Assembly (NCBI GenBank): GCA_965363685.1
Contig: CBDTUP010000002.1
Coordinates: 1-32,057 of the forward strand
Length of the DNA: 32,057 bases
Reading direction: 5' to 3'
Source of the DNA: an uncultured bacterium
Lineage (GTDB): Bacteria; Actinomycetota; Acidimicrobiia; Spongiisociales; JAHEDJ01
A program made the translations under genes and the position numbers. The notes below the pieces were generated by a model that was not told where the DNA came from, ran no database searches, and was given only the letters and a program-made list of their open reading frames with translations. Of the stretch, positions 7,965 to 19,649 are shown piece by piece (position 1 is the first letter of the stretch; the number at the start of each line of letters is the position of its first letter).

Positions 7965-8013
7965 GCTGATAGCTGAAAGCTGATGACTGATAGCGGCAGC
8001 CGCTACGCGGCTG
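7965..8013. repeat. Heptad tandem array (7 units) overlapping the secA stop and 3' hairpin
   Basis: In phase: GCTGATA GCTGAAA GCTGATG ACTGATA GCGGCAG CCGCTAC GCGGCTG. The last three units form hairpin GGCAGCCGC-TAC-GCGGCTGCC (7995-8015). Confidence 0.75.
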
Positions 8014-10633
8014 CCCCATGACACTTCTTGTACTTCTTCCCAGAACCACACGGGCAGGGATCATTACGGCCAACCTTGTCGGAGTGAGCCGGACCTCTAG
8101 AGGATGAAGAGGGCTGTCCACCGCCCGCAGCAACCTGAAGCTTCGGTTTCTCTTCGCGTTTCGCAAGTTGGGCGTGAAAGAGGTAGCGGACCGCGTCTCG
8201 CTTCGCGGAGTCAACGAGGTCGGCAAACATGTCAAAACCCTCGCGCTGATACTCGACGAGCGGATCTCTCTGGCCCATCGCCCGCAGTCCGATACCTGCC
8301 CGCAGATAGTCCATCTCAGCAAGGTGCTCGCGCCACTTGTTGTCGATGATCGAGAGAATGACATTCTGTTCGATTTGTCTGAGGACATCCGAACCGAACT
8401 CGGCCTCGCGGCGTTCATAAACGGCATGGGCCTCCTCGAGAGCAGCATCGACGACGTCTACGACCGCTAGCCCACCCGGTTGATCGACCTTCTCTCTCGT
8501 CAACTCAGTGGGGTACAGCACGGATAGCTCCTGGATCAGCTCATCCCAATCCCACTCCGAAGGAGAAACCTGGTCGGTGATGGCGATCTGGACCGTCTCC
8601 TCAACAACCTCGTCAATCCACTCGCTGGCCAGCTCCTTGCTGGAATCACCTTCGAGGATTCCAGATCGCCATTCGTAGATGACCTGTCGCTGTTTGTTCA
8701 TTACCTCATCGTATTTGAGTACGTTCTTCCGGATCTCGAAGTTTTGCGACTCGACCTGACCTTGTGCCCGCTCGATCGACTTGCTGACCATCTTGGCCTC
8801 GATCGGCATGTCTTCCGGCATCCGCAGTCGCTCCATGATGGAGGAAACCCGCTCGCCCTGGAATCTTCGCATGAGATCGTCTTCGAGTGATAGGTAGAAC
8901 CTCGACTCACCGGGATCACCCTGCCGACCCGATCTTCCTCGGAGCTGATTGTCGATACGGCGGGATTCGTGGCGCTCGGTGCCGACCACGTACAACCCAC
9001 CGGCAGCGACAACTTTGCGATAGCCCTCCTCGAGCTCCGTGCTGTAGCGGGCAAACGCAGCTTCGTAGCCTTCCTTGTACTCAGGAGATTCGGGCACGAG
9101 GCCCTGGCGCTTCATCTCTCCCTTGGCCAGTTCGTCGGGGTTACCACCGAGGCGGATGTCGACGCCCCGCCCGGCCATGTTGGTCGCCACGGTCACCGCG
9201 CCCAAGCGACCCGCCTGGGCGATGATGTCGGCTTCACGCGCATGGTGCTTGGCGTTCAGCACCTCGTGTTTGACGCCGCGCTTGCGAAGCATCGTCGAGA
9301 GACGCTCGCTCTTCTCGATTGAGACAGTACCGACCAGAGACGGTTGCCCCTTCTTGCTTCGTTCGGTGAGGTCATCGATAAGGGCGTTGAACTTGGCGTC
9401 CTCAGTCTTGTAGACGAGATCGGGTTCATCGATCCGAGCAATCGGTTGGTTGGTCGGAATCTCCACGACCTCAAGTCCGTAGATCTCCGCAAATTCCGCC
9501 GCCTCCGTCTTGGCAGTACCCGTCATCCCGGCGAGCTTCTCGTACATGCGGAAGTAGTTCTGCAAGGTGATGGTCGCCAGCGTCTGGTTCTCTTCCTTGA
9601 TCTTGACGCCCTCTTTGGCCTCAATCGCTTGGTGCAACCCCTCCGAATAGCGACGTCCGTCCAGTACCCGTCCGGTGAACTCGTCGACGATCTTCACCTC
9701 GCCGTTGTCGATCAGATAGTCGACATCCTTCTTGTACAGCACCTTGGCCTTCAACGCCACATCGAGATGGTGGACGAGATCGACGGCGGCGAAGTCGTAC
9801 ATGTTCTCGACACCGAGGATCTCTTCGACGCGGGTAACACCGTCCTCGGTTGTGACAACCTGACGCTTTGCCTCGTCGATTTCATAATGTTGATCGACTC
9901 GGAGCCGATCAACGATCCGCGAGAAGTCACGGTAATACTTGGCAGTGTCGGCCACCCGACCGGAGATGATCAGCGGCGTTCTCGCCTCGTCAACGAGGAT
10001 GGAGTCGACCTCGTCGACAATGGCATAAGCGTGCCCTCGCTTGACCATATGGTCGACCCGCATCGCCATGTTGTCGCGCAAATAATCGAACCCGAACTCG
10101 TTGTTGGTCCCATAGGTGATGTCGGCACCGTAGGCCGGGCGTCGTTCCTCAGGAGTCATCGCCGACTGAATGAGCCCGACTTCGAGACCGAGGAAACGGT
10201 GAACCCCGCCCATCCACTCCGCATCGCGTGAAGCCAGGTAGTCGTTCACTGTGACAACATGCACGCCACCGCCGGAGAGGCCGTTGAGGTAGCACGGAAG
10301 GGTAGCGACGAGCGTTTTCCCCTCACCGGTCTTCATCTCAGCGATCATGCCGCGATGGAGAGCGCCCCCACCGATCACTTGCACATCGAAGGGGCGCATA
10401 CCGAGAACCCGCCGTGAAGCCTCACGAACGACCGCGAAAGCTTCCACTTCCAGATCATCGACGGATGCCCCGTTGTGCAATCGCTGCCTGAAGTCGTCGG
10501 TCTTCGCCCTCAGTTCGACATCGGTCAGCTTTTCGATTGTTGGCTCGAGGTCGTTCACTGCCGCCGTCAGAACCTCGAGATCGGAAAACGCTTTGCCTTC
10601 GCCGACGCGAAGTATTTTGCTGAGAATGGACAT
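8003..10633 (-). CDS. secA: Preprotein translocase ATPase SecA
   Basis: The N-terminus is [15 protein letters not shown]. It has the [19 protein letters not shown] motor motif and the C-terminal zinc finger [14 protein letters not shown]. Length is 876 aa. Confidence 0.97.
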
Positions 10634-10686
10634 GAGTTACCAATCATATCGGTGGTAGGCGCTACTGAGGTCGTCGTGCCTCCGGG

Positions 10687-12027
10687 TCAGGAATTCTGAT
10701 ACCCGGCGACCTCGAGAAGCGCCGCCGGATCGAGTCCGGCTCCAGCCGGTGTGAGTTGATCCACAACCGTCCTCCCGATCATCGAGAATGGCTCGGGAAT
10801 CTCGAGCGAGGCGCCACCGGCGGAACGAACCAACACCACATCCGGATGGTCGGCGGCCTCGTTGTTGTTTCTGGTCACCATGACAAGTTCGCCGCCTGCC
10901 AGCTGCAATAGTGAACCGGTCGGGTACACCCCGACCATCTTTATGAACGCGTGCACCATGTTCGGGTCGTAGAAGGTCCCTGCACCCTGTAGCAGTACTT
11001 GAAGAGCCCGATTGGGCGTCTCCGCCCGACGGTAGGAACGACGGGTCGTGAGTGCGTCGTAGGTGTCGGCAGTGGCTACCAGTCGGCTGAAGAAGTGCCG
11101 TTCGCGGTCATAGACGAGCGACGGGTAACCCTGACCGTCGAAGCGGGCATGATGCTCAAAAGCTACGACGGCAGCGATTTCCTGGCCGGGAGCGGCAGCC
11201 GCCAGGATTGCGGCGGCACCTTCTTGAGGATGGAGCTTGATTTCTGCCCATTGTTCAGGATTCAAACGACCCGGATACTGCAGAGTCGATGCCTGGACCC
11301 TCACTTTGCCGATGTCGTGTAGAAGCGCGCCGACTGCCAATAGCTTGAGTTCGTCCTCGGGCAATCCAGCGAGCCTGGCGAGCGCAATCGACAGGATGCA
11401 GACGTTCACCGAGTGATAAAAGGTGTACTCATCGTGGCTCTTCATCGTCGAGAGGAGCAACGAAGCGCTTGGTTGAGCAAGCGTGTGTTCGACCAGCTGC
11501 TCGACTGCCCACGTCGCACCAGTGAGATCGAAGCCTTCATCGACCTCCAGAGCCATCGTGACTCCTCGGAGAACATCCAACGAGCGAGCGTACGACCTGC
11601 GGAGACCGGAGATCGCCTCATCGGACTCGAGTTCCGCCCTCGTGAACGGCCCTTCGTTCAGCCGGATGGTGCCACCGGCCGGAATATCACCCGACAGGCC
11701 GGCTGCAAAACCAGCGAGGTCGTAGACGTCACCTTCAGATACCGGGTACTCGAAGGAAATGGATTCGATCCCACGACTCTGCAGGTCCCGGAGAAGCTTG
11801 TTGTACTCCAGCGAGGCATGGGCCAGGAGGCTCCGATTCTCGTAGAGCGAATCACCGAGAATCGACAGCACCACCTCACCAACGGTGTCCTTGCACAGGC
11901 GGTTTGCATTCTCCCGGAGCTTTCCCAGAACTTCCGCGGTCGCCGGATGGTCGAGTGGGTACAGAGCCAGTTGGGTGGTAGCGGCCCGCAGCTGACCGAG
12001 AACATCCCGCGATATCCGTTCGCTCAT
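10687..12027 (-). CDS. HD-GYP domain protein (putative cyclic-di-GMP phosphodiesterase) with an N-terminal sensor/partner domain of about 190 aa
   Basis: It has the HD motif LLHDIGK and the motif EHHARFDGQGYP (variant of HHExxDGxGYP). Its start overlaps the upstream stop as ATGA (12024-12027). Confidence 0.8.
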   Translation of the reverse strand: MSERISRDVLGQLRAATTQLALYPLDHPATAEVLGKLRENANRLCKDTVGEVVLSILGDSLYENRSLLAHASLEYNKLLRDLQSRGIESISFEYPVSEGDVYDLAGFAAGLSGDIPAGGTIRLNEGPFTRAELESDEAISGLRRSYARSLDVLRGVTMALEVDEGFDLTGATWAVEQLVEHTLAQPSASLLLSTMKSHDEYTFYHSVNVCILSIALARLAGLPEDELKLLAVGALLHDIGKVRVQASTLQYPGRLNPEQWAEIKLHPQEGAAAILAAAAPGQEIAAVVAFEHHARFDGQGYPSLVYDRERHFFSRLVATADTYDALTTRRSYRRAETPNRALQVLLQGAGTFYDPNMVHAFIKMVGVYPTGSLLQLAGGELVMVTRNNNEAADHPDVVLVRSAGGASLEIPEPFSMIGRTVVDQLTPAGAGLDPAALLEVAGYQNS

Positions 12028-13919
12028 CCCTGGCTTCCCTTCAATGCATCCCTGGCCGAGCGTCTGAGAGTACGCGTCGACGCCGAGAAGCTGAATCGCT
12101 TGGCGGCTAGTTGCTCGAGTGCCGCACGAGTCTTGGGACTCGATCTCTCAGAGAGGAGGTCCACGACCCGCTGCTTCTCGGCCAGATCCAGGCTACGACG
12201 GTCCAGGGCAGCCACCAACACCCGCTCGGCAGCATCGCTCTGCTGGGTCCCGAGCAGCGCAATCGCGGTTTGCCGAATGCTTGGATGGTCATCGCCGAGT
12301 GCAGTCTCGAAGAACGGTACGGCTTCATCGCCAAGCATCGCCAGACCACGCAACGCCTCGAGGCGCACACGATGATCAGCGTATGAGAGAACCGGGCGCA
12401 TCGCCCGGATCGCATCGCGGTCACCTGTGTGTCGAAGAACGATCACGATATTGCGGACGAGATACCAGCGCGGATCGCTTAGACGGGCGGTTAACGGGTC
12501 GGGATCATCTGTTGCGACTTCGGACAGCATGTCGACGAGCATCCGTCTGCGTGCTGCATCCTGTTCCTCGGCGAGAATGTCCACCAGCACATTTACCGCG
12601 CTCGTACCGAGCGCCTTGAGGAGTCGCACCGCCGGGCCCGCCTCTCCACCTTCGGTGGCCGTCTGCACTACCGCACTCATGATCTCGGATGAGGAGATTT
12701 GGGCAAGGGCCTCCTCGACTTCCGGCCGCCGGTGATCGGCAAACGTGCTCGCATCCATGACAGCTCTAAGCCACAACTCCGCTCGCCGATACTGACCGCG
12801 GCGAACTGCCGTACCTACCTTGCCGATCCAGATTCGCATCAACCGGCGAAAGCGGTCATCGCGGTCTTCGGCGAACAACAACCCGCGGAAGACCTCCAGC
12901 GCGTGATAGAAGAAGTGTTGGGGATTTGGGAACTCCGACTGCAGTGCTTCAACAAACGAAGACTCGTCGACCCCTGAACCAGCCAGATCGCGCAACCGTT
13001 CGTGGACACTGACGGCAGCTACTTCTCTGGCAGCCTGAACAGCGTCGGTGGTCTGGATCAGTTCCAACAGTTCCTCCGGACGGCCGTCAACACGATCCGT
13101 CGAAACTCGCGCATAGTCGAGCAGCAAAGCAAGGCCTGATGGATCAAGACTCGGAGCAAGCCGCGCCAACTCGTTCCCTGCGAACTGATCCAGGAACGCT
13201 CGTTCAGAGTCGGATTCCTGTCGATTCAGAAACCTGGTGAATACCGCCATGCTGGCCGGCGTTGGCAGATGGAAGAAGGTCTCAACGAACGCTTTCACTA
13301 CCTCTTCCCGGCCCTGGTAATCGTCGTCATCCACGAGTACGAGGGTCGCCTGGTACTCCTCGAAAAACAGATCAGCCAGTTTTTCCGGGTCACCACCCGC
13401 CTCTTCCACCAGGGCGGCAGCAAACTCCTTCGGGTCGGAGCCTCGATCGATGATCGACTGAACGCGATCGTCTCGATCGACCACCTCCTCCTCGACGAGC
13501 GTGCGTAGCTGCGAACGTTGGATGACCGAGATGCTGGCAACACCGTCTCGCCTCAGAGCAGCCGCCACGCCGCCGGAGGCTCGGACCGATTCCTCTTCCT
13601 TGGCCAGCGAACCAAACAACTTGGCGATGTCCAAAGCACCCGGTGAATCCTCGAACCGAATCGACTCGATGTGATGGACGTAGCAACGTCGGGCAAGACG
13701 TTCTGCTCCTTCACGCTCCGTTTCCACCTCATCACCCTCTGAGAGGAAATGCGGACCCTCGACCTCGATGGTCATATCCGGCTCAACCACCTCGCGGAGC
13801 GTTTCGACAGCGCGCCGAAACGCAGGTTGCGTTTCAGGATCGGGATAGAGGCTATGAACCGTCCACGCCGTACCCAGCGCCTCAACGGCGACCACCTGCG
13901 GACGACGCTCTACTTGCAT
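12024..13919 (-). CDS. HEAT-repeat protein, function unknown (631 aa)
   Basis: The C-terminal part has HEAT/PBS-lyase-like repeats (DPRWYLVRNIVIVLRHTGDRDAI..., DHRVRLEALRGLAMLGDEAV..., DDHPSIRQTAIALLG). The N-terminal ~100 aa resemble the HD-GYP N-terminus. No catalytic motif seen. Confidence 0.6.
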   Translation of the reverse strand: MQVERRPQVVAVEALGTAWTVHSLYPDPETQPAFRRAVETLREVVEPDMTIEVEGPHFLSEGDEVETEREGAERLARRCYVHHIESIRFEDSPGALDIAKLFGSLAKEEESVRASGGVAAALRRDGVASISVIQRSQLRTLVEEEVVDRDDRVQSIIDRGSDPKEFAAALVEEAGGDPEKLADLFFEEYQATLVLVDDDDYQGREEVVKAFVETFFHLPTPASMAVFTRFLNRQESDSERAFLDQFAGNELARLAPSLDPSGLALLLDYARVSTDRVDGRPEELLELIQTTDAVQAAREVAAVSVHERLRDLAGSGVDESSFVEALQSEFPNPQHFFYHALEVFRGLLFAEDRDDRFRRLMRIWIGKVGTAVRRGQYRRAELWLRAVMDASTFADHRRPEVEEALAQISSSEIMSAVVQTATEGGEAGPAVRLLKALGTSAVNVLVDILAEEQDAARRRMLVDMLSEVATDDPDPLTARLSDPRWYLVRNIVIVLRHTGDRDAIRAMRPVLSYADHRVRLEALRGLAMLGDEAVPFFETALGDDHPSIRQTAIALLGTQQSDAAERVLVAALDRRSLDLAEKQRVVDLLSERSSPKTRAALEQLAAKRFSFSASTRTLRRSARDALKGSQG

Positions 13920-14569
13920 CAGTCGATTTGAATTAGGTCTTCACGCAAGGCGTACATCACAGCTTCGCCGCGCGAATGCAATCCGAGTTTGTCCAGGATA
14001 TTGCGAACGTGGTTCTTGACGGTGTTTTCTGAGATATAGAGCATCTCCCCGATCTCTCGACTCGTCCGGCCCTGAGCCACAGCCTGAAGAACCTCGATCT
14101 CTCGACCGGTGAGCGCCGGCTTTCGGCCGACAACCACATCCCGATGCCTGAGCATCTGCGCGACGGTCTCGAAGAGCTTCATTCCCATCGCCGGCGAAAT
14201 GACCGCTCCCCCAGTCATCACGTCCTTCATCGCCGAGACGAGGTGAGGAAGCGGCGTCGTCTTCGTGATGTAGCCAACGCTGCCCGCCTTGATCGCCTTC
14301 AGCAGGTCTTCCTCCGATTCGCTGGCAGTAAGCAGAACCACCTTGGTTTCGGGAGCAGCGGCAATGAGTTTGTCTACGACTTCCAGACCGGAAATCCCCG
14401 GCATCAAGACATCCAGGACGATCAAATCAGGCTGTTGCTCCTTGGCGACCTGGACGCCGGCCAGGGCGCCTTCGGCTGTGCCAACGACCTCAAAACCTGC
14501 ATTTTCCAGCGCGGCCGACATGCCGGCAGTGAAGAGCGGGGCATCGTCAATGATGATTACGCGCGTCAT
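13919..14569 (-). CDS. NarL/FixJ (LuxR-type HTH) response regulator, with no kinase gene in the window
   Basis: The receiver domain has IIIDD, DLIVLDVLMPG (phospho-acceptor Asp), LLTAS and a conserved Lys. The C-terminal part is LTGREIEVLQAVAQGRTSREIGEMLYISENTVKNHVRNILDKLG. Confidence 0.88.
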   Translation of the reverse strand: MTRVIIIDDAPLFTAGMSAALENAGFEVVGTAEGALAGVQVAKEQQPDLIVLDVLMPGISGLEVVDKLIAAAPETKVVLLTASESEEDLLKAIKAGSVGYITKTTPLPHLVSAMKDVMTGGAVISPAMGMKLFETVAQMLRHRDVVVGRKPALTGREIEVLQAVAQGRTSREIGEMLYISENTVKNHVRNILDKLGLHSRGEAVMYALREDLIQID

Positions 14570-15111
14570 GCCGGCTCTATCAATCCGAGGGCGCCATCGC
14601 GTCGGCGGTAGAGCACGCTGGGCATGTCGCTTTCTGCGTTCTGGAAGAAGAAGAAACTATGCCCGAGTAGGTCCATCTGCAGTGCGGCCTCCTCCGGCGT
14701 CATCGGCTTCATCACGAACTGCTTCACGCGCACAATCACAGGGCCATCATCCGGCTCGTCCTCGACGGACGCGAAGCCGAGGTCCTCACCCTTCCGACCC
14801 TTCCGCGAACGTTGTACAAGTCTTTCTTTCAATCGGCGAAGTCGCTTCTCCATCTTGTCGACGGCGATGTCGAGAGCCGCTTCGGCGGATTCGGCGGTCG
14901 ACTCGACGCGCATCATCTGGCCGGCTGCGCGACTCGTGACTTCAACCTTGAATCGTCCCTCTGCGACTCGACGATTCTGCGCTTCGGTGAACTCGACATC
15001 TGCATCGAGCACGCCATCGAAAAAGCGACCGGCGTGAGAAACCTTGCTCTCGGCCATCTCACGAAGTCGCTCGTCCACCTTGGTATTTCTACCGCGGACT
15101 CGAACTTCCAC
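14566..15111 (-). CDS. hpf: Ribosome hibernation promoting factor, long form (HPF)
   Basis: The N-terminal sigma-54-modulation/RaiA fold starts MEVRVRGRNTKVDERLRE. The C-terminal dimerisation domain reads VKQFVMKPMTPEEAALQMDLLGHSFFFFQN. The start is GTG with GGAGGT 6 nt upstream. Confidence 0.9.
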   Translation of the reverse strand: MEVRVRGRNTKVDERLREMAESKVSHAGRFFDGVLDADVEFTEAQNRRVAEGRFKVEVTSRAAGQMMRVESTAESAEAALDIAVDKMEKRLRRLKERLVQRSRKGRKGEDLGFASVEDEPDDGPVIVRVKQFVMKPMTPEEAALQMDLLGHSFFFFQNAESDMPSVLYRRRDGALGLIEPA

Positions 15112-15125
15112 GCTCTACCTCCGAT

Positions 15126-15725
15126 CTATGGACCCGGCCGTTGACCGGCTCCATCCTCACCTAGGAGACTAGTCACCTTTAGCGCGCGGGTGGCGGTAAC
15201 CGCACCAACGACCAGGTCACCCAATTCTCGTTCTGCTGCCTGCAATGTCGACCCGGTGGTAACCACGTCGTCGACAAGGATTATCGGTTCATTTGTGGGC
15301 CTGCTGAAGAACATTGGCGGATGTCTTCTGGCCGCATTCCTGCCGGTGTGAGTACGTGTCCAAAGAGGCGCCGACAGCACCCTTGCCACGATGCGACCGG
15401 TCAGTGTTGCCAACTCCTTCGCCAGGACCAGGGCCGGGTCCACCCCGTATCGCAGGCGCCTGACTCCGGAGCGAGGAACCGGGACCAGAATGCCTGGGCC
15501 ACCGTCAAGGAGCGGCATCATCGCTTCGGCCAACCACCTCCCAGCCGGTTGGAGCGATTCGAACTTGATCCTGTGCACTAGGCGACGTGCCGAGAACTCA
15601 TGGCGGAACGCCGACCTCACGAGTAAACCCGATTCGAGACGTTGAACTCCACCAGAACGAAAGTCGGCTAGACACGCCGGACAAACACTGCGTTCACTCC
15701 AGCTGCGGCAAGACAAACAGACCAT
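15126..15725 (-). CDS. comFC: ComF-family phosphoribosyltransferase-domain protein
   Basis: It has N-terminal CxxC...CxxC (CLSCRS...CPAC) and the PRPP loop ILVDDVVTTGSTL. I prefer ATG 15725. The track start (TTG 15806) would translate the heptad repeat array. Confidence 0.75.
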   Translation of the reverse strand: MVCLSCRSWSERSVCPACLADFRSGGVQRLESGLLVRSAFRHEFSARRLVHRIKFESLQPAGRWLAEAMMPLLDGGPGILVPVPRSGVRRLRYGVDPALVLAKELATLTGRIVARVLSAPLWTRTHTGRNAARRHPPMFFSRPTNEPIILVDDVVTTGSTLQAAERELGDLVVGAVTATRALKVTSLLGEDGAGQRPGP

Positions 15726-15728
15726 CAA

Positions 15729-15819
15729 TCGAAGATACCCCGTCGAAGTGACAAGAATCCGACATCCGAGAGCCTCTCGAGCCAACGGCCAAAGGCCAAT
15801 GGCCAATGGCCAATGGCCG
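15729..15819. repeat. Heptad tandem array filling the ahcY-comF spacer (13 units, 3 perfect)
   Basis: In phase: TCGAAGA TACCCCG TCGAAGT GACAAGA ATCCGAC ATCCGAG AGCCTCT CGAGCCA ACGGCCA AAGGCCA ATGGCCA ATGGCCA ATGGCCG. Confidence 0.85.
15732..15737 (-). promoter_or_regulatory. Candidate -10 box (TATCTT) for a leaderless comF
   Basis: On the minus strand TATCTT is followed by 6 nt (CGATTG) and then ATG 15725. There is no SD sequence. Confidence 0.35.
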
Positions 15820-17083: not shown

Positions 17084-18061
17084 TCACAATCGATTCTTCA
17101 GTTCAGTCAACACGTCGACAGGCCCAGGATCGATCCCGGCTGCCTCGGCAACGAGTACAGAGACGAGATCTCCAACCAGGCCCAAACTGGCGGCGCGGGC
17201 GAGCGGGGATGCGCCGGTCGACCACACCTCACCTCCGACGAACGATCCGTCTCCGAGAAGATCGGACGTTAGCGCGAAGCGATGAGAGATCTCAGGCCGT
17301 TCGCCCTTGTCCCGCAACATGACGATGCCCGAAGATTCTCCAACATCATGATGGGACGCAGCCCAGCCGACCAGTTCGTTGTGGTCGAGTTCGGGAATGG
17401 TCGACCAGTAGGCAGGTGTCTTTGCGTTCTCGTGCATTTGCTTTGCCCAACGCTGCGCGGCCACTTCCGCAGGTCCGCTCGAGCCCCAGATGACCGGCAG
17501 TCGTCCGGAGAGGTTGGCAGCGATCTCGCGCGCAAGGTTGCGCGTCTCCTCATCTGCCAGCATCTCTTCCATGAGGTCCGCCGCTTCCGCGAGCATCGTT
17601 TGCGTCTCAGAAAGCCCCGTGGAACGACCGACCAGCCGTAGCACCGCACCGACCAGATACCCGAGCGCTGCTCTCGGTTGCAGCCCCGACGGAACCACTA
17701 GTCGTGGAAGATCTCTGTTATCCGCGATTGCGATCGCCTCCCCGCCCGTCGAAATGACGGCAACTGGAAGCTCCAGGTCGATCGCCTCTCCTAGAGACGA
17801 GAGCGTCTCTGCCGTGTTCCCGGAGTAGGAAACTGCAATGACGAGTGGGCGCGCCGAGGCAGCCCATTTAGGCAGCCCATAGTCCTTGTGGATCCTCACA
17901 TCGACCTGCGTCTCGGCGACCGCAGCCTGGACGAAGTCGCCCGAGATTCCCGACCCACCCATCCCGCAAACAAGGATTGTGGAGGAAGGAGGTATCGCCG
18001 GGGTATCGAGGGTTGCAGCCCACCGGTACTGCAGTGGGAGGCTCTCGATCATCGACCACAT
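17084..18061 (-). CDS. SIS-domain bifunctional phosphoglucose/phosphomannose isomerase family protein
   Basis: It has the CGMGGSGISGD SIS motif and is 325 aa. It holds the conserved position between pmm and ahcY, and its start overlaps the pmm stop as TGATG. Confidence 0.75.
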   Translation of the reverse strand: MWSMIESLPLQYRWAATLDTPAIPPSSTILVCGMGGSGISGDFVQAAVAETQVDVRIHKDYGLPKWAASARPLVIAVSYSGNTAETLSSLGEAIDLELPVAVISTGGEAIAIADNRDLPRLVVPSGLQPRAALGYLVGAVLRLVGRSTGLSETQTMLAEAADLMEEMLADEETRNLAREIAANLSGRLPVIWGSSGPAEVAAQRWAKQMHENAKTPAYWSTIPELDHNELVGWAASHHDVGESSGIVMLRDKGERPEISHRFALTSDLLGDGSFVGGEVWSTGASPLARAASLGLVGDLVSVLVAEAAGIDPGPVDVLTELKNRL

Positions 18062-19575
18062 CAGCTCGATCTCTCAGCTTCTTCGATCAGCATCACAGGT
18101 ATGCCGTCTGTGACCGGGTAGCGAAGCCCACATTCGGTGCAATCGAGCTTCGAGTCGGCCGTATTCTCGGTCAACTCTCCATGACAACTCGGACAAACGA
18201 GGATGGCCATCAGTTCGGGAGCAACGAGGCCTACCGGAGCAGGGTCGCTGAGCGAACGGATCTCAGAAACGAGCGAGTCGACCGCGGCGCCATCCGGTCC
18301 TTCGGCGTTCAGCCGCAGCACCGGCTCTGTGTTGGAGGGGCGCAGATTGAGCCAGCGGTCCGGCCATTCGATGGTTAGCCCGTCGGTCTTGTCGATCGAT
18401 GCATCTGAATAGTGCTGCTCAACGGATTCCAGGACCGCCGCCTGATCGGAGACGCTGAGATTGATCTCGCCGGAAGCTGCGTACGGCTCAACCTCGTTGC
18501 GGAGTTCGGACAGCGAACGCCCCGATTCTGAGAGGATCTGCAGCAACACCAGCATGGCCAGCATGCCCGAGTCCGCCCTGTAGTTGTCGCGGAAGTAGTA
18601 GGGGCCGCTGTGTTCTCCCCCGAAGATCGCCCCCGTTTCCGCCATTATCTGTTTGATATATGAGTGTCCGACCCTGGTGCGGATCGGAGTACCTCCGGCC
18701 GCCGAAACCAGTTCAGGCACCGCGCGGCTGGTGATGAGGTTGTGCACGATCGTTGCCCCGGGTTCCCGAGCGAGAAACCACCTGGCAATCAGGGCGGTGG
18801 TTGTGCTCCCCGAGAGAGGTTTCCGCTGATCGTCGATAAAGAAGGCTCTGTCGGCGTCGCCGTCAAACGCTACTCCCAGATCCGCCTGCTGATCCTCCAT
18901 CAAGGCGATCAGGTCTACGAGATTCTCGGGGTTGAGGGGATCGGCGGGGTGGTTCGGGAAGGTTCCGTCTGGTTCGAGGTAGAGGGGGATGAGACTCGCC
19001 CGGATTCGAGAGAAGACCTCAGGCAGGACCACACCGGCCATTCCGTTGCCACCATCGACCGCAACTCGGAGTCCGGCGATGCCAGGACCGTCGACAATCG
19101 AGAACAAATGGTTGATGTAGTCGGCCGTCCCCTCGAACGCTGCGATGGAACCGACGGCCTCTGACGGTTGCAACCCGGCCTCGGCAATGGCACGGATGTC
19201 TTGAAGACCGGTATCGTGCCCGACCGGCGCCGCGCCCTCGCGGCAGAGCTTGATTCCGTTGTACTCGGGTGGATTATGCGAGGCAGTGATCATGGCACCC
19301 GGTACGTTCTCGCTGCCCGAGACGAAGTAGACGGTATCGGTGGCGACCTCTCCGAGATCGAGAACATCCACACCTTGTGCGGCGATCCCTTCCATGAACG
19401 CACCTGCTATCGACGGCGACGACTCTCGACAATCGCGCCCGACTGCAATCTTCCCGGCCCCGGCGAATTTGGCAAATGCTGCTCCGATGCGACCTGCTCC
19501 TTCAGCATCGAGTTCTCCTGTGTCGGTGCGGCCGCGAATGTCGTAGGCCTTGAAAATCTTCTCGTACTCGCTCAT
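18061..19575 (-). CDS. manB: Phosphomannomutase/phosphoglucomutase fused to a C-terminal Trm112-like zinc ribbon
   Basis: It has the TASHNP phosphoserine loop, FDGDADR Mg site and GGEHSG sugar loop. The last 52 aa read PELMAILVCPSCHGEL...LDCTECGLRYPVTDGIPVMLIEEA. ATG 19575 is preceded by GGAAAGGG. Confidence 0.88.
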   Translation of the reverse strand: MSEYEKIFKAYDIRGRTDTGELDAEGAGRIGAAFAKFAGAGKIAVGRDCRESSPSIAGAFMEGIAAQGVDVLDLGEVATDTVYFVSGSENVPGAMITASHNPPEYNGIKLCREGAAPVGHDTGLQDIRAIAEAGLQPSEAVGSIAAFEGTADYINHLFSIVDGPGIAGLRVAVDGGNGMAGVVLPEVFSRIRASLIPLYLEPDGTFPNHPADPLNPENLVDLIALMEDQQADLGVAFDGDADRAFFIDDQRKPLSGSTTTALIARWFLAREPGATIVHNLITSRAVPELVSAAGGTPIRTRVGHSYIKQIMAETGAIFGGEHSGPYYFRDNYRADSGMLAMLVLLQILSESGRSLSELRNEVEPYAASGEINLSVSDQAAVLESVEQHYSDASIDKTDGLTIEWPDRWLNLRPSNTEPVLRLNAEGPDGAAVDSLVSEIRSLSDPAPVGLVAPELMAILVCPSCHGELTENTADSKLDCTECGLRYPVTDGIPVMLIEEAERSS

Positions 19576-19600
19576 TGGACCCTTTCCGATCGCAATCCAG

Positions 19601-19606
19601 ATTGTA
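19601..19606 (-). promoter_or_regulatory. Candidate -10 box (TACAAT) of the pmm-SIS-ahcY operon
   Basis: On the minus strand TACAAT lies 25 nt upstream of ATG 19575, and the leader contains an SD sequence. It sits in the divergent 74-bp spacer. Confidence 0.35.
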
Positions 19607-19649
19607 AGGCGCATTTGCATGCCCCGGAACGCGTACACTTCGCTGGCTC

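Follow-up and report, generated by a model that had tools for sequence, protein, structure and literature searches.

What are a response regulator (RR), a HEAT-repeat protein and an HD-GYP phosphodiesterase doing between hpf, the gene of a long-form ribosome hibernation-promoting factor, and secA in the genome of an uncultured member of the Acidimicrobiia? The locus lies in a stretch of 32,057 nucleotides (nt; GenBank contig CBDTUP010000002.1 of assembly GCA_965363685.1, positions 1 to 32,057), the whole of which was analysed and is called the window below. Our answer, to which we assign a probability of about 0.6, is that hpf and the three genes that follow it form a translationally chained unit that was built in two layers and would encode a regulated HEAT/HD-GYP phosphodiesterase made together with HPF. 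Judged from sequence comparison, the real insertion in the hpf-secA slot is a two-gene cassette whose HEAT and HD-GYP proteins carry an undescribed domain of about 125 residues. Of the phosphodiesterases that act on cyclic di-GMP (c-di-GMP), the HD-GYP class is the less well understood one, and a two-subunit enzyme of this kind, if confirmed, would bring a new principle of regulation to the family.

Organization and conservation of the hpf unit

All four genes lie on the minus strand. The first, hpf (14566-15111; 181 amino acids (aa)), has a GTG start codon preceded by GGAGG at a distance of 7 nt, and its product carries an N-terminal S30AE domain and a C-terminal dimerisation domain, both with Pfam scores above cut-off (Ribosomal_S30AE, 3.1e-19; Ribosom_S30AE_C, 1.9e-25). 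It also matches the NCBIfam model yfiA/HPF and, over its full length, the ribosome-bound long HPFs of Protein Data Bank (PDB) entries 8uu4 and 5myj (E 1e-27 to 1e-29). It is followed by the genes for a NarL/LuxR-family RR (13919-14569; 216 aa; Response_reg 2.8e-26, GerE 1.4e-19), a HEAT-repeat protein (12024-13919; 631 aa; Pfam HEAT_2 6e-14) and an HD-GYP phosphodiesterase (10687-12027; 446 aa; Pfam HD_5 2.8e-19, HD 2.2e-13). These genes, their domains and three overlapping junctions had been described in a first-pass annotation, and both the coordinates and the overlaps are borne out by the sequence: hpf and the RR gene share ATGA (14569-14566), the RR and HEAT genes TGATG (13921-13917), and the HEAT and HD-GYP genes ATGA (12027-12024). 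Separated by 14 nt from the comF-family gene upstream, hpf opens the translationally chained unit. Within the unit, from hpf to the HD-GYP gene, a consensus scan of the minus strand, which is weak evidence, gave no sigma-70-like promoter and no terminator-like site.

Conservation was assessed in 67 distinct related Acidimicrobiia loci from a species-representative collection, all of them from uncultured metagenome-assembled genomes (MAGs), with one MAG being 98% identical. The order hpf-RR-HEAT-HD-GYP-secA is present in 45 of the 67 loci, and the conserved order extends to comF-hpf-RR-HEAT-HD-GYP-secA-prfB-ftsE, with HEAT protein identity falling to about 30%. The HEAT protein itself was found in 28 of 41 relatives and in 9 of the 12 sampled families of the window's order. 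Overlaps are the rule inside the unit: hpf and the RR gene overlap by 4 nt in 47/53 loci, the RR and HEAT genes overlap in 32/46 (another 12 are within 0-20 nt), and the HEAT and HD-GYP genes overlap in 51/52. At the downstream edge, the HD-GYP gene and secA overlap in none of 42 loci (median gap of 56 nt), and upstream the median gap between comF and hpf is 75 nt. The translationally chained unit therefore consists of four genes, from hpf to HD-GYP, and this four-gene arrangement occurs far more often than expected by chance.

A domain shared by the HEAT and HD-GYP proteins

The two proteins of the cassette begin with homologous domains. The HEAT copy (13515-13919, minus strand) covers residues 1 to about 135, in which two helices enclose an LYPDP motif and a beta hairpin comes next; the HD-GYP copy (11653-12027, minus strand) covers residues 1 to about 125 and has the motif LYPLDHP. 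Homology is evident when profiles are compared with each other (hhalign 93%, E 2.8e-7, 123 columns), significance being reached only with profiles, as a direct BLASTP comparison of the two N-termini gives E=5.7. In AlphaFold2 models both N-termini have one order of elements, namely two helices, hairpin, helix, strand and helix. No NCBIfam model matches the domain, and Pfam has no match at E<=10 except for a chance-level hit of the HEAT copy to DUF6197 (E 0.062, 14 bits against a cut-off of 24.6 bits).

A joint profile of the N-terminal domain retrieves 3639 representative proteins at E<=1e-3. Among 59 diverse matches, 40 contain HEAT_2 and 12 contain HD or HD_5, and the only other families present are further HEAT/ARM-type repeats, ERAP1_C (2) and HDOD (1). 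The domain is restricted almost only to HEAT-type and HD-type proteins. In related genomes its matches come as adjacent pairs on the same strand, about 1.9 kb apart, the exception being a short-HEAT lineage in which the domain is kept on the HD-GYP protein only. That one domain is present on the enzyme and on the HEAT protein of the overlapping upstream gene suggests a phosphodiesterase of two subunits, with members in several phyla and thousands of sequence clusters. The common domain and the adjacency of the genes also support the earlier suggestion of a partnership between the two proteins, with the HEAT protein dedicated to the HD-GYP enzyme.

The HEAT/HD-GYP cassette occurs in Acidobacteriota and Gemmatimonadota, and overlapping pairs are present in a Thermoanaerobaculia genome (next to ispG) and in a Longimicrobiales genome, in contexts unrelated to hpf. 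Two other Actinomycetota families (G070 and G056) also have N-domain pairs away from hpf. In a tree of the HD-GYP proteins, four of five unlinked copies form one clade nested among the hpf-linked ones (support 87/84, weak; outgroups on very long branches), a topology suggestive of an origin of the unlinked copies by duplication of the linked locus, with the order of events not settled.

Some variants of the cassette were also noted. One genome of the window's order (G235, C22:3966-11833) has four N-domain matches on one strand within 8 kb, which we read as two tandem HEAT/HD-GYP cassettes. On two metagenomic contigs (L154:4316-9454 and L155:2075-5992), a HisKA/HATPase_c histidine kinase is transcribed divergently from a distant HEAT/HD-GYP pair; the two kinases are 65% identical and come from related organisms, and are thus not independent cases. 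This kinase may indicate that, in another lineage, the cassette receives input from a two-component system. A member of candidate division WOR-3 (L102, CP070802.1; genome G101) has three N-domain proteins in open frames of 512-738 aa, and tblastn detected no HD-GYP gene beside the HEAT-type gene; HEAT-type proteins may therefore also exist without a partner or beside a divergent one. A role of the cassette in anti-phage defence was considered and rejected, as PADLOC gave only weak generic matches to HD, HEAT and HTH (helix-turn-helix) models.

Predicted properties of the HEAT and HD-GYP proteins

The HEAT protein consists of the N-terminal alpha/beta domain, an all-helical middle region and C-terminal HEAT repeats, with HEAT_2 scoring 52.5 bits against a Pfam cut-off of 27.7. 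Its AlphaFold2 model, with a predicted local distance difference test score (pLDDT) of 84, is all-alpha from residue 150, and Foldseek searches with this model return only ARM/HEAT/alphaRep solenoids. In the model, residues 150-631 are an ARM/HEAT solenoid without a catalytic fold, in keeping with the initial description of a protein with no predicted activity. The middle region contains an invariant FLDQF[AS]G motif and has nothing usable in Pfam or NCBIfam even at E<=10. No NCBIfam model matches the HEAT protein, which is named "HEAT repeat domain-containing protein" or "hypothetical" in public records. Some loci (L150:3244-5429, L151:4305-6358 and L092-L098) have a short HEAT variant, some 400 aa long, whose match to the window protein is confined to residues ~310-610.

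In the HD-GYP protein, the shared domain is followed by a helical linker, the catalytic domain (residues about 190-365; 10933-11460, minus strand; from the alignment with PmGH) and a small C-terminal domain (residues about 370-426; 10750-10920, minus strand). AlphaFold2 predicts five beta strands for the latter (373-376, 381-386, 396-401, 407-414 and 421-425), and neither Pfam nor NCBIfam has anything usable for it at E<=10. Profile matches in the PDB include PmGH (4mcw, 2e-37), V-cGAP3 (5z7c, 1.3e-32) and PA4781 (4r8z, 2.5e-29), and the AlphaFold2 model (pLDDT 81) has 4mcw, 3tm8, 4r8z and 9rbz (PmGH, Bd1817, PA4781 and DvhD) as its top Foldseek matches, at a probability of 1.00.

The catalytic domain has D199, H205, H237-D238, K241, H266, H292-H293, G300-Y301-P302, D321, D324 and R330-x-Y-R333. 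Seven of these (H205, H237, D238, H266, H292, H293 and D321) match the PmGH ligands H189, H221, D222, H250, H276, H277 and D305. All seven are invariant in 21 HD-GYP orthologues, as are D199 and K241 (the equivalents of PmGH D183 and K225), GYP, D324 and RxYR. PmGH has eight metal ligands, including E185 of the E/D-T-G motif, which marks the trinuclear subclass (PMC4159591). The window protein has Tyr201 (motif Y-T-F) at the E185 position, with an invariant E200 one residue earlier, and it is therefore assigned to the Y/F, predicted binuclear, subclass, as is PA4781. Enzymes of this subclass usually stop at pGpG (PMC4159591; 10.1101/2021.11.05.467447). R330-S-Y-R333, aligned with PmGH R314-P-Y-K317, fits the RxY[K/R] motif of the c-di-GMP type, as distinct from the RxxQ/RxxN motifs of the cyclic GMP-AMP (cGAMP) type (10.1101/2021.11.05.467447). 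With these catalytic residues and RxYR retained, the enzyme looks catalytically competent and of the c-di-GMP type, as had been proposed from the initial reading. The window genome (78% complete) encodes at least three domains of GGDEF cyclases and three HD-GYP-type domains, two besides that of the window; c-di-GMP signalling therefore exists in the organism.

Compared with the solved HD-GYP proteins (PmGH 4MCW, PA4781 4R8Z, V-cGAP3 5Z7C, Bd1817 3TM8 and DvhD 9RBZ), the window protein shares the catalytic fold, the HD/HH/GYP/D ligands, the Asp/Lys pair and RxY[K/R]. It differs from them in having HHA in place of HHE, an additional C-terminal beta domain, and an N-terminal domain that is none of GAF, REC (receiver) or DUF3391, has no Pfam model and is duplicated on the HEAT protein of the overlapping upstream gene. 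The Bd1817 family (DUF3391-HD-GYP) is similar in its N-terminal alpha/beta part of about 120 residues and in the long helices that lead to HD-GYP (whole-chain Foldseek TM score of 0.6 on the target). However, two helices come first in the window protein and four strands come first in Bd1817, and no HEAT partner has been described for the Bd1817 family. Assignment to the DUF3391/Bd1817 family was rejected, as residues 1-135 have no match to DUF3391 (PF11871) at E<=10. Neither a HEAT partner nor the N-terminal domain found here is mentioned in a census of HD-GYP architectures (Galperin and Chou 2021).

The response regulator and its likely relation to OrrA

The RR has a REC domain at residues 4-114 and a GerE HTH at 152-207. 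Its pocket (D8/D9, D53, T81 and K103) is intact when aligned to VraR (PDB matches are VraR, NarL and DevR), and the cluster around it contains no kinase gene, both as originally reported. One HisKA_3 kinase, on another contig, and many HisKA kinases are encoded in the genome.

Among 60 other Actinomycetota sampled for comparison, the slot takes the form hpf-secA or, in several families, hpf-RR-secA, and occasionally holds other inserts. With the window RR as query, a comparison run in this one direction, the hpf-adjacent regulator comes out on top in each of five other genomes, scoring 164-185 bits where the runner-up reaches 127-141. Three of the five genomes are 7.5-9.2 Mb in size, and each offers over 100 NarL-type candidates (up to 132); there too the top match is hpf-adjacent, with 43% identity. 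In Streptomyces, the hpf-adjacent regulator is OrrA/SCO3008, located next to HPF/SCO3009; this conserved regulator, an orphan, has the orphan kinase OhkA as its partner and is an activator of wblA and of a DUF5999 gene (10.64898/2026.01.30.702861; PMC7157823). By position and best hit, the window RR appears to be the counterpart of the OrrA-type hpf-adjacent regulator of Actinomycetota, the equivalence with Streptomyces being drawn from position and literature synteny. An adjacent kinase is not expected for an orphan regulator of the OrrA type. As in the window, the Streptomyces hpf-orrA locus (near secA and mtrAB-lpqB) has a NarL-type orphan regulator directly downstream of a long hpf and upstream of secA, whereas the 4-nt overlap of hpf with the RR gene and the upstream genes ahcY, pgi-like and pmm, in place of mtrAB-lpqB, set the window apart. 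The orrA-hpf pairing studied in Streptomyces would thus be ancient and reach the Acidimicrobiia.

These comparisons indicate that the RR has long occupied the hpf-secA slot and is not a newcomer. The first-pass annotation had treated the three genes as one inserted module, a description that suits the HEAT/HD-GYP cassette and not the RR, as hpf-RR-secA is found elsewhere. In none of the 60 sampled Actinomycetota, which are outside the window's order, was a HEAT/HD-GYP cassette found between the hpf-adjacent RR and secA (for the genomes of 7.5-9.2 Mb the comparison covers the RR position only). RpfG-type regulators likewise bring a receiver and an HD-GYP domain together in one signalling unit. 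In contrast to them, the window has the receiver and the HD-GYP domain on separate polypeptides, the receiver has its own DNA-binding output (GerE), and the HD-GYP protein begins with another type of domain; any control of the enzyme by the RR is hypothetical.

Proposed function and alternative explanations

We propose that the unit was built in two layers within an ancient comF-hpf-secA neighbourhood. The first layer, old in Actinomycetota, would be the orphan NarL-type RR directly after hpf, presumably phosphorylated by a kinase encoded elsewhere, and the second, in one order of Acidimicrobiia, a mobile two-gene HEAT/HD-GYP cassette inserted after the RR. The HEAT and HD-GYP proteins would associate one-to-one, probably via their shared N-terminal domain or under its control, into a c-di-GMP phosphodiesterase that is regulated, belongs to the binuclear "Tyr" subclass and is expected to yield mainly pGpG. 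Within it the HEAT subunit may regulate the enzyme, act as its scaffold or direct it to a target. Through its translational chaining to hpf and the RR gene, the cassette is expected to be made whenever hpf is expressed, and c-di-GMP would be lowered as ribosomes enter hibernation. We infer the interaction of the HEAT and HD-GYP proteins, the substrate, the co-transcription and the link to hibernation; the stoichiometric co-expression with hpf and the dormancy role suggested earlier are likewise hypothetical. With the cassette fixed in an operon that chains it to hpf and an OrrA-type RR gene, a concrete and testable hypothesis arises, in which second-messenger turnover is tied to ribosome hibernation in a large actinobacterial lineage without cultured members.

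The chief rival explanation is that the adjacency to hpf is historical, a product of a permissive slot and operon hitch-hiking, and that the cassette encodes a general c-di-GMP phosphodiesterase with no role in hibernation. We consider this unlikely, and several observations nevertheless favour it and weigh against a unit dedicated to hibernation. All states of the slot are found within the window's own order: hpf-secA (G012, G023, G035, G015 and G026), hpf-RR-secA (G018, G029 and G024, the last with a HEAT/HD-GYP cassette at another site), the full unit, a short-HEAT form (G014 and G034), and a short HEAT gene with no HD-GYP gene before secA (L095 and L097). Sister families have hpf-secA or hpf-RR-secA and no cassette, showing that the hpf link is not obligatory. 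The cassette also occurs outside the hpf context, as unlinked paralogous pairs, beside ispG in Thermoanaerobaculia and beside the histidine kinase of L154/L155. Eight relatives carry hpf and no HEAT protein, by which co-inheritance of hpf and cassette is rejected, and an occurrence throughout the Acidimicrobiia is rejected by a class sample of 201 genomes, in which the N-terminal domain is present in 19, all of the window's order. Phylogenetic co-occurrence of the trio with hpf, proposed earlier as a check, holds for many families of one Acidimicrobiia order, with cassettes also unlinked and hpf also alone. The short HEAT variant, which has no shared N-terminal domain, still sits between the RR and HD-GYP genes; pairing of one N-terminal domain with the other is therefore not the sole mode of association. 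Further, the whole run from pmm to ftsE is compact and in one direction, which makes tight spacing alone weak evidence for a shared function, and the known targets of Streptomyces OrrA are wblA and the DUF5999 gene, not hpf (10.64898/2026.01.30.702861; PMC7157823). Against a purely historical adjacency, overlaps of 4 nt or 1 nt are kept even where the HEAT proteins of different families share only 30-50% identity, which argues for selection on co-expression, and two other Actinomycetota families independently have HD-GYP-type genes between hpf and secA.

A further explanation concerns the enzyme rather than its location: the HD-GYP protein may act mainly on pGpG or 3'3'-cGAMP, or may be a nucleotide-binding regulator that signals via the HEAT protein without turnover. 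The consensus motif of the family is HHExh(D/N)GxGYP (Galperin and Chou 2021). In the window it reads HHARFDGQGYP, with HH, DG and GYP intact and the Glu replaced by Ala, and HHE is HHA, HHT or HHS in all 21 orthologues, so that activity or substrate could differ from what we propose. The Tyr at the E185 position and YPG in place of the KPG motif point in the same direction, and some HD-GYP proteins, RpfG-like or degenerate, work by protein-protein interaction (Galperin and Chou). However, the Glu of HHE is absent from the eight PmGH metal ligands (PMC4159591) and a role as metal ligand was rejected for it; HHA would rather be a signature of this family. KPG contacts the base via main-chain atoms (10.1101/2021.11.05.467447), the seven binuclear ligands, the Asp/Lys pair, GYP and RxY[K/R] are all invariant, and shifts to cGAMP are tied to RxxQ/RxxN (10.1101/2021.11.05.467447), where the window has RxYR. 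Such a change of substrate or loss of turnover is, in our judgement, improbable, and c-di-GMP hydrolysis by a HEAT/HD-GYP complex is preferred.

A bolder extension of the proposed function is that the HEAT protein docks the HD-GYP enzyme on HPF-bound ribosomes or the SecA machinery, and that the cassette stands for a new class of cyclic-dinucleotide phosphodiesterases, heteromeric and dependent on a partner. This is a long shot; if true, local breakdown of c-di-GMP would be physically coupled to translational shutdown.

Other HD-type genes between hpf and secA

In the two other Actinomycetota families mentioned above (L141:3147-6903 in G070 and L142:3359-7124 in G056), hpf is followed by genes for two membrane HD proteins and then secA, with no regulator. 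The first protein (563 aa) is a membrane protein of HD-GYP type (HD_5 1e-34 to 1e-41) with a weak MASE9-like N-terminus, and its motif HHHEYYDGGGYV contains GYV, not GYP. The second, encoded by an overlapping gene, is a membrane protein of 454-460 aa with a degenerate HD domain. The presence of HD-type genes between hpf and secA in G070 and G056 is an independent arrangement, which argues against pure accident.

Flanking genes

The unit is part of a minus-strand run in which pmm, a SIS-type pgi, ahcY, comF, hpf, RR, HEAT, HD-GYP, secA, prfB and ftsE all have one direction. Upstream, the comF-family phosphoribosyltransferase-like gene (15126-15806, minus strand) matches NCBIfam comF at 7.2e-11, under the curated cut-off, and Pfam Pribosyltran weakly; it is a conserved upstream neighbour whose position is kept in related loci. 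The conserved downstream neighbour, secA (8003-10633, minus strand; Pfam SecA_DEAD 6.7e-126 and further SecA domains), is separated from the HD-GYP gene by a spacer of 53 nt (10634-10686, minus strand) that forms the downstream edge of the coupled unit. No terminator-like hairpin was found on the minus strand of this spacer. A TATGAT lies in it, 9 nt before the start codon ATG of secA, and an obvious Shine-Dalgarno sequence is missing; secA could be transcribed from a promoter of its own here or with a very short leader. The phosphomannomutase gene (18061-19638, minus strand) carries an in-frame C-terminal Trm112p-like zinc ribbon (Pfam Trm112p 2.8e-9, residues 474-512), and in several related loci the phosphomannomutase and Trm112p-like parts appear as separate tblastn segments.

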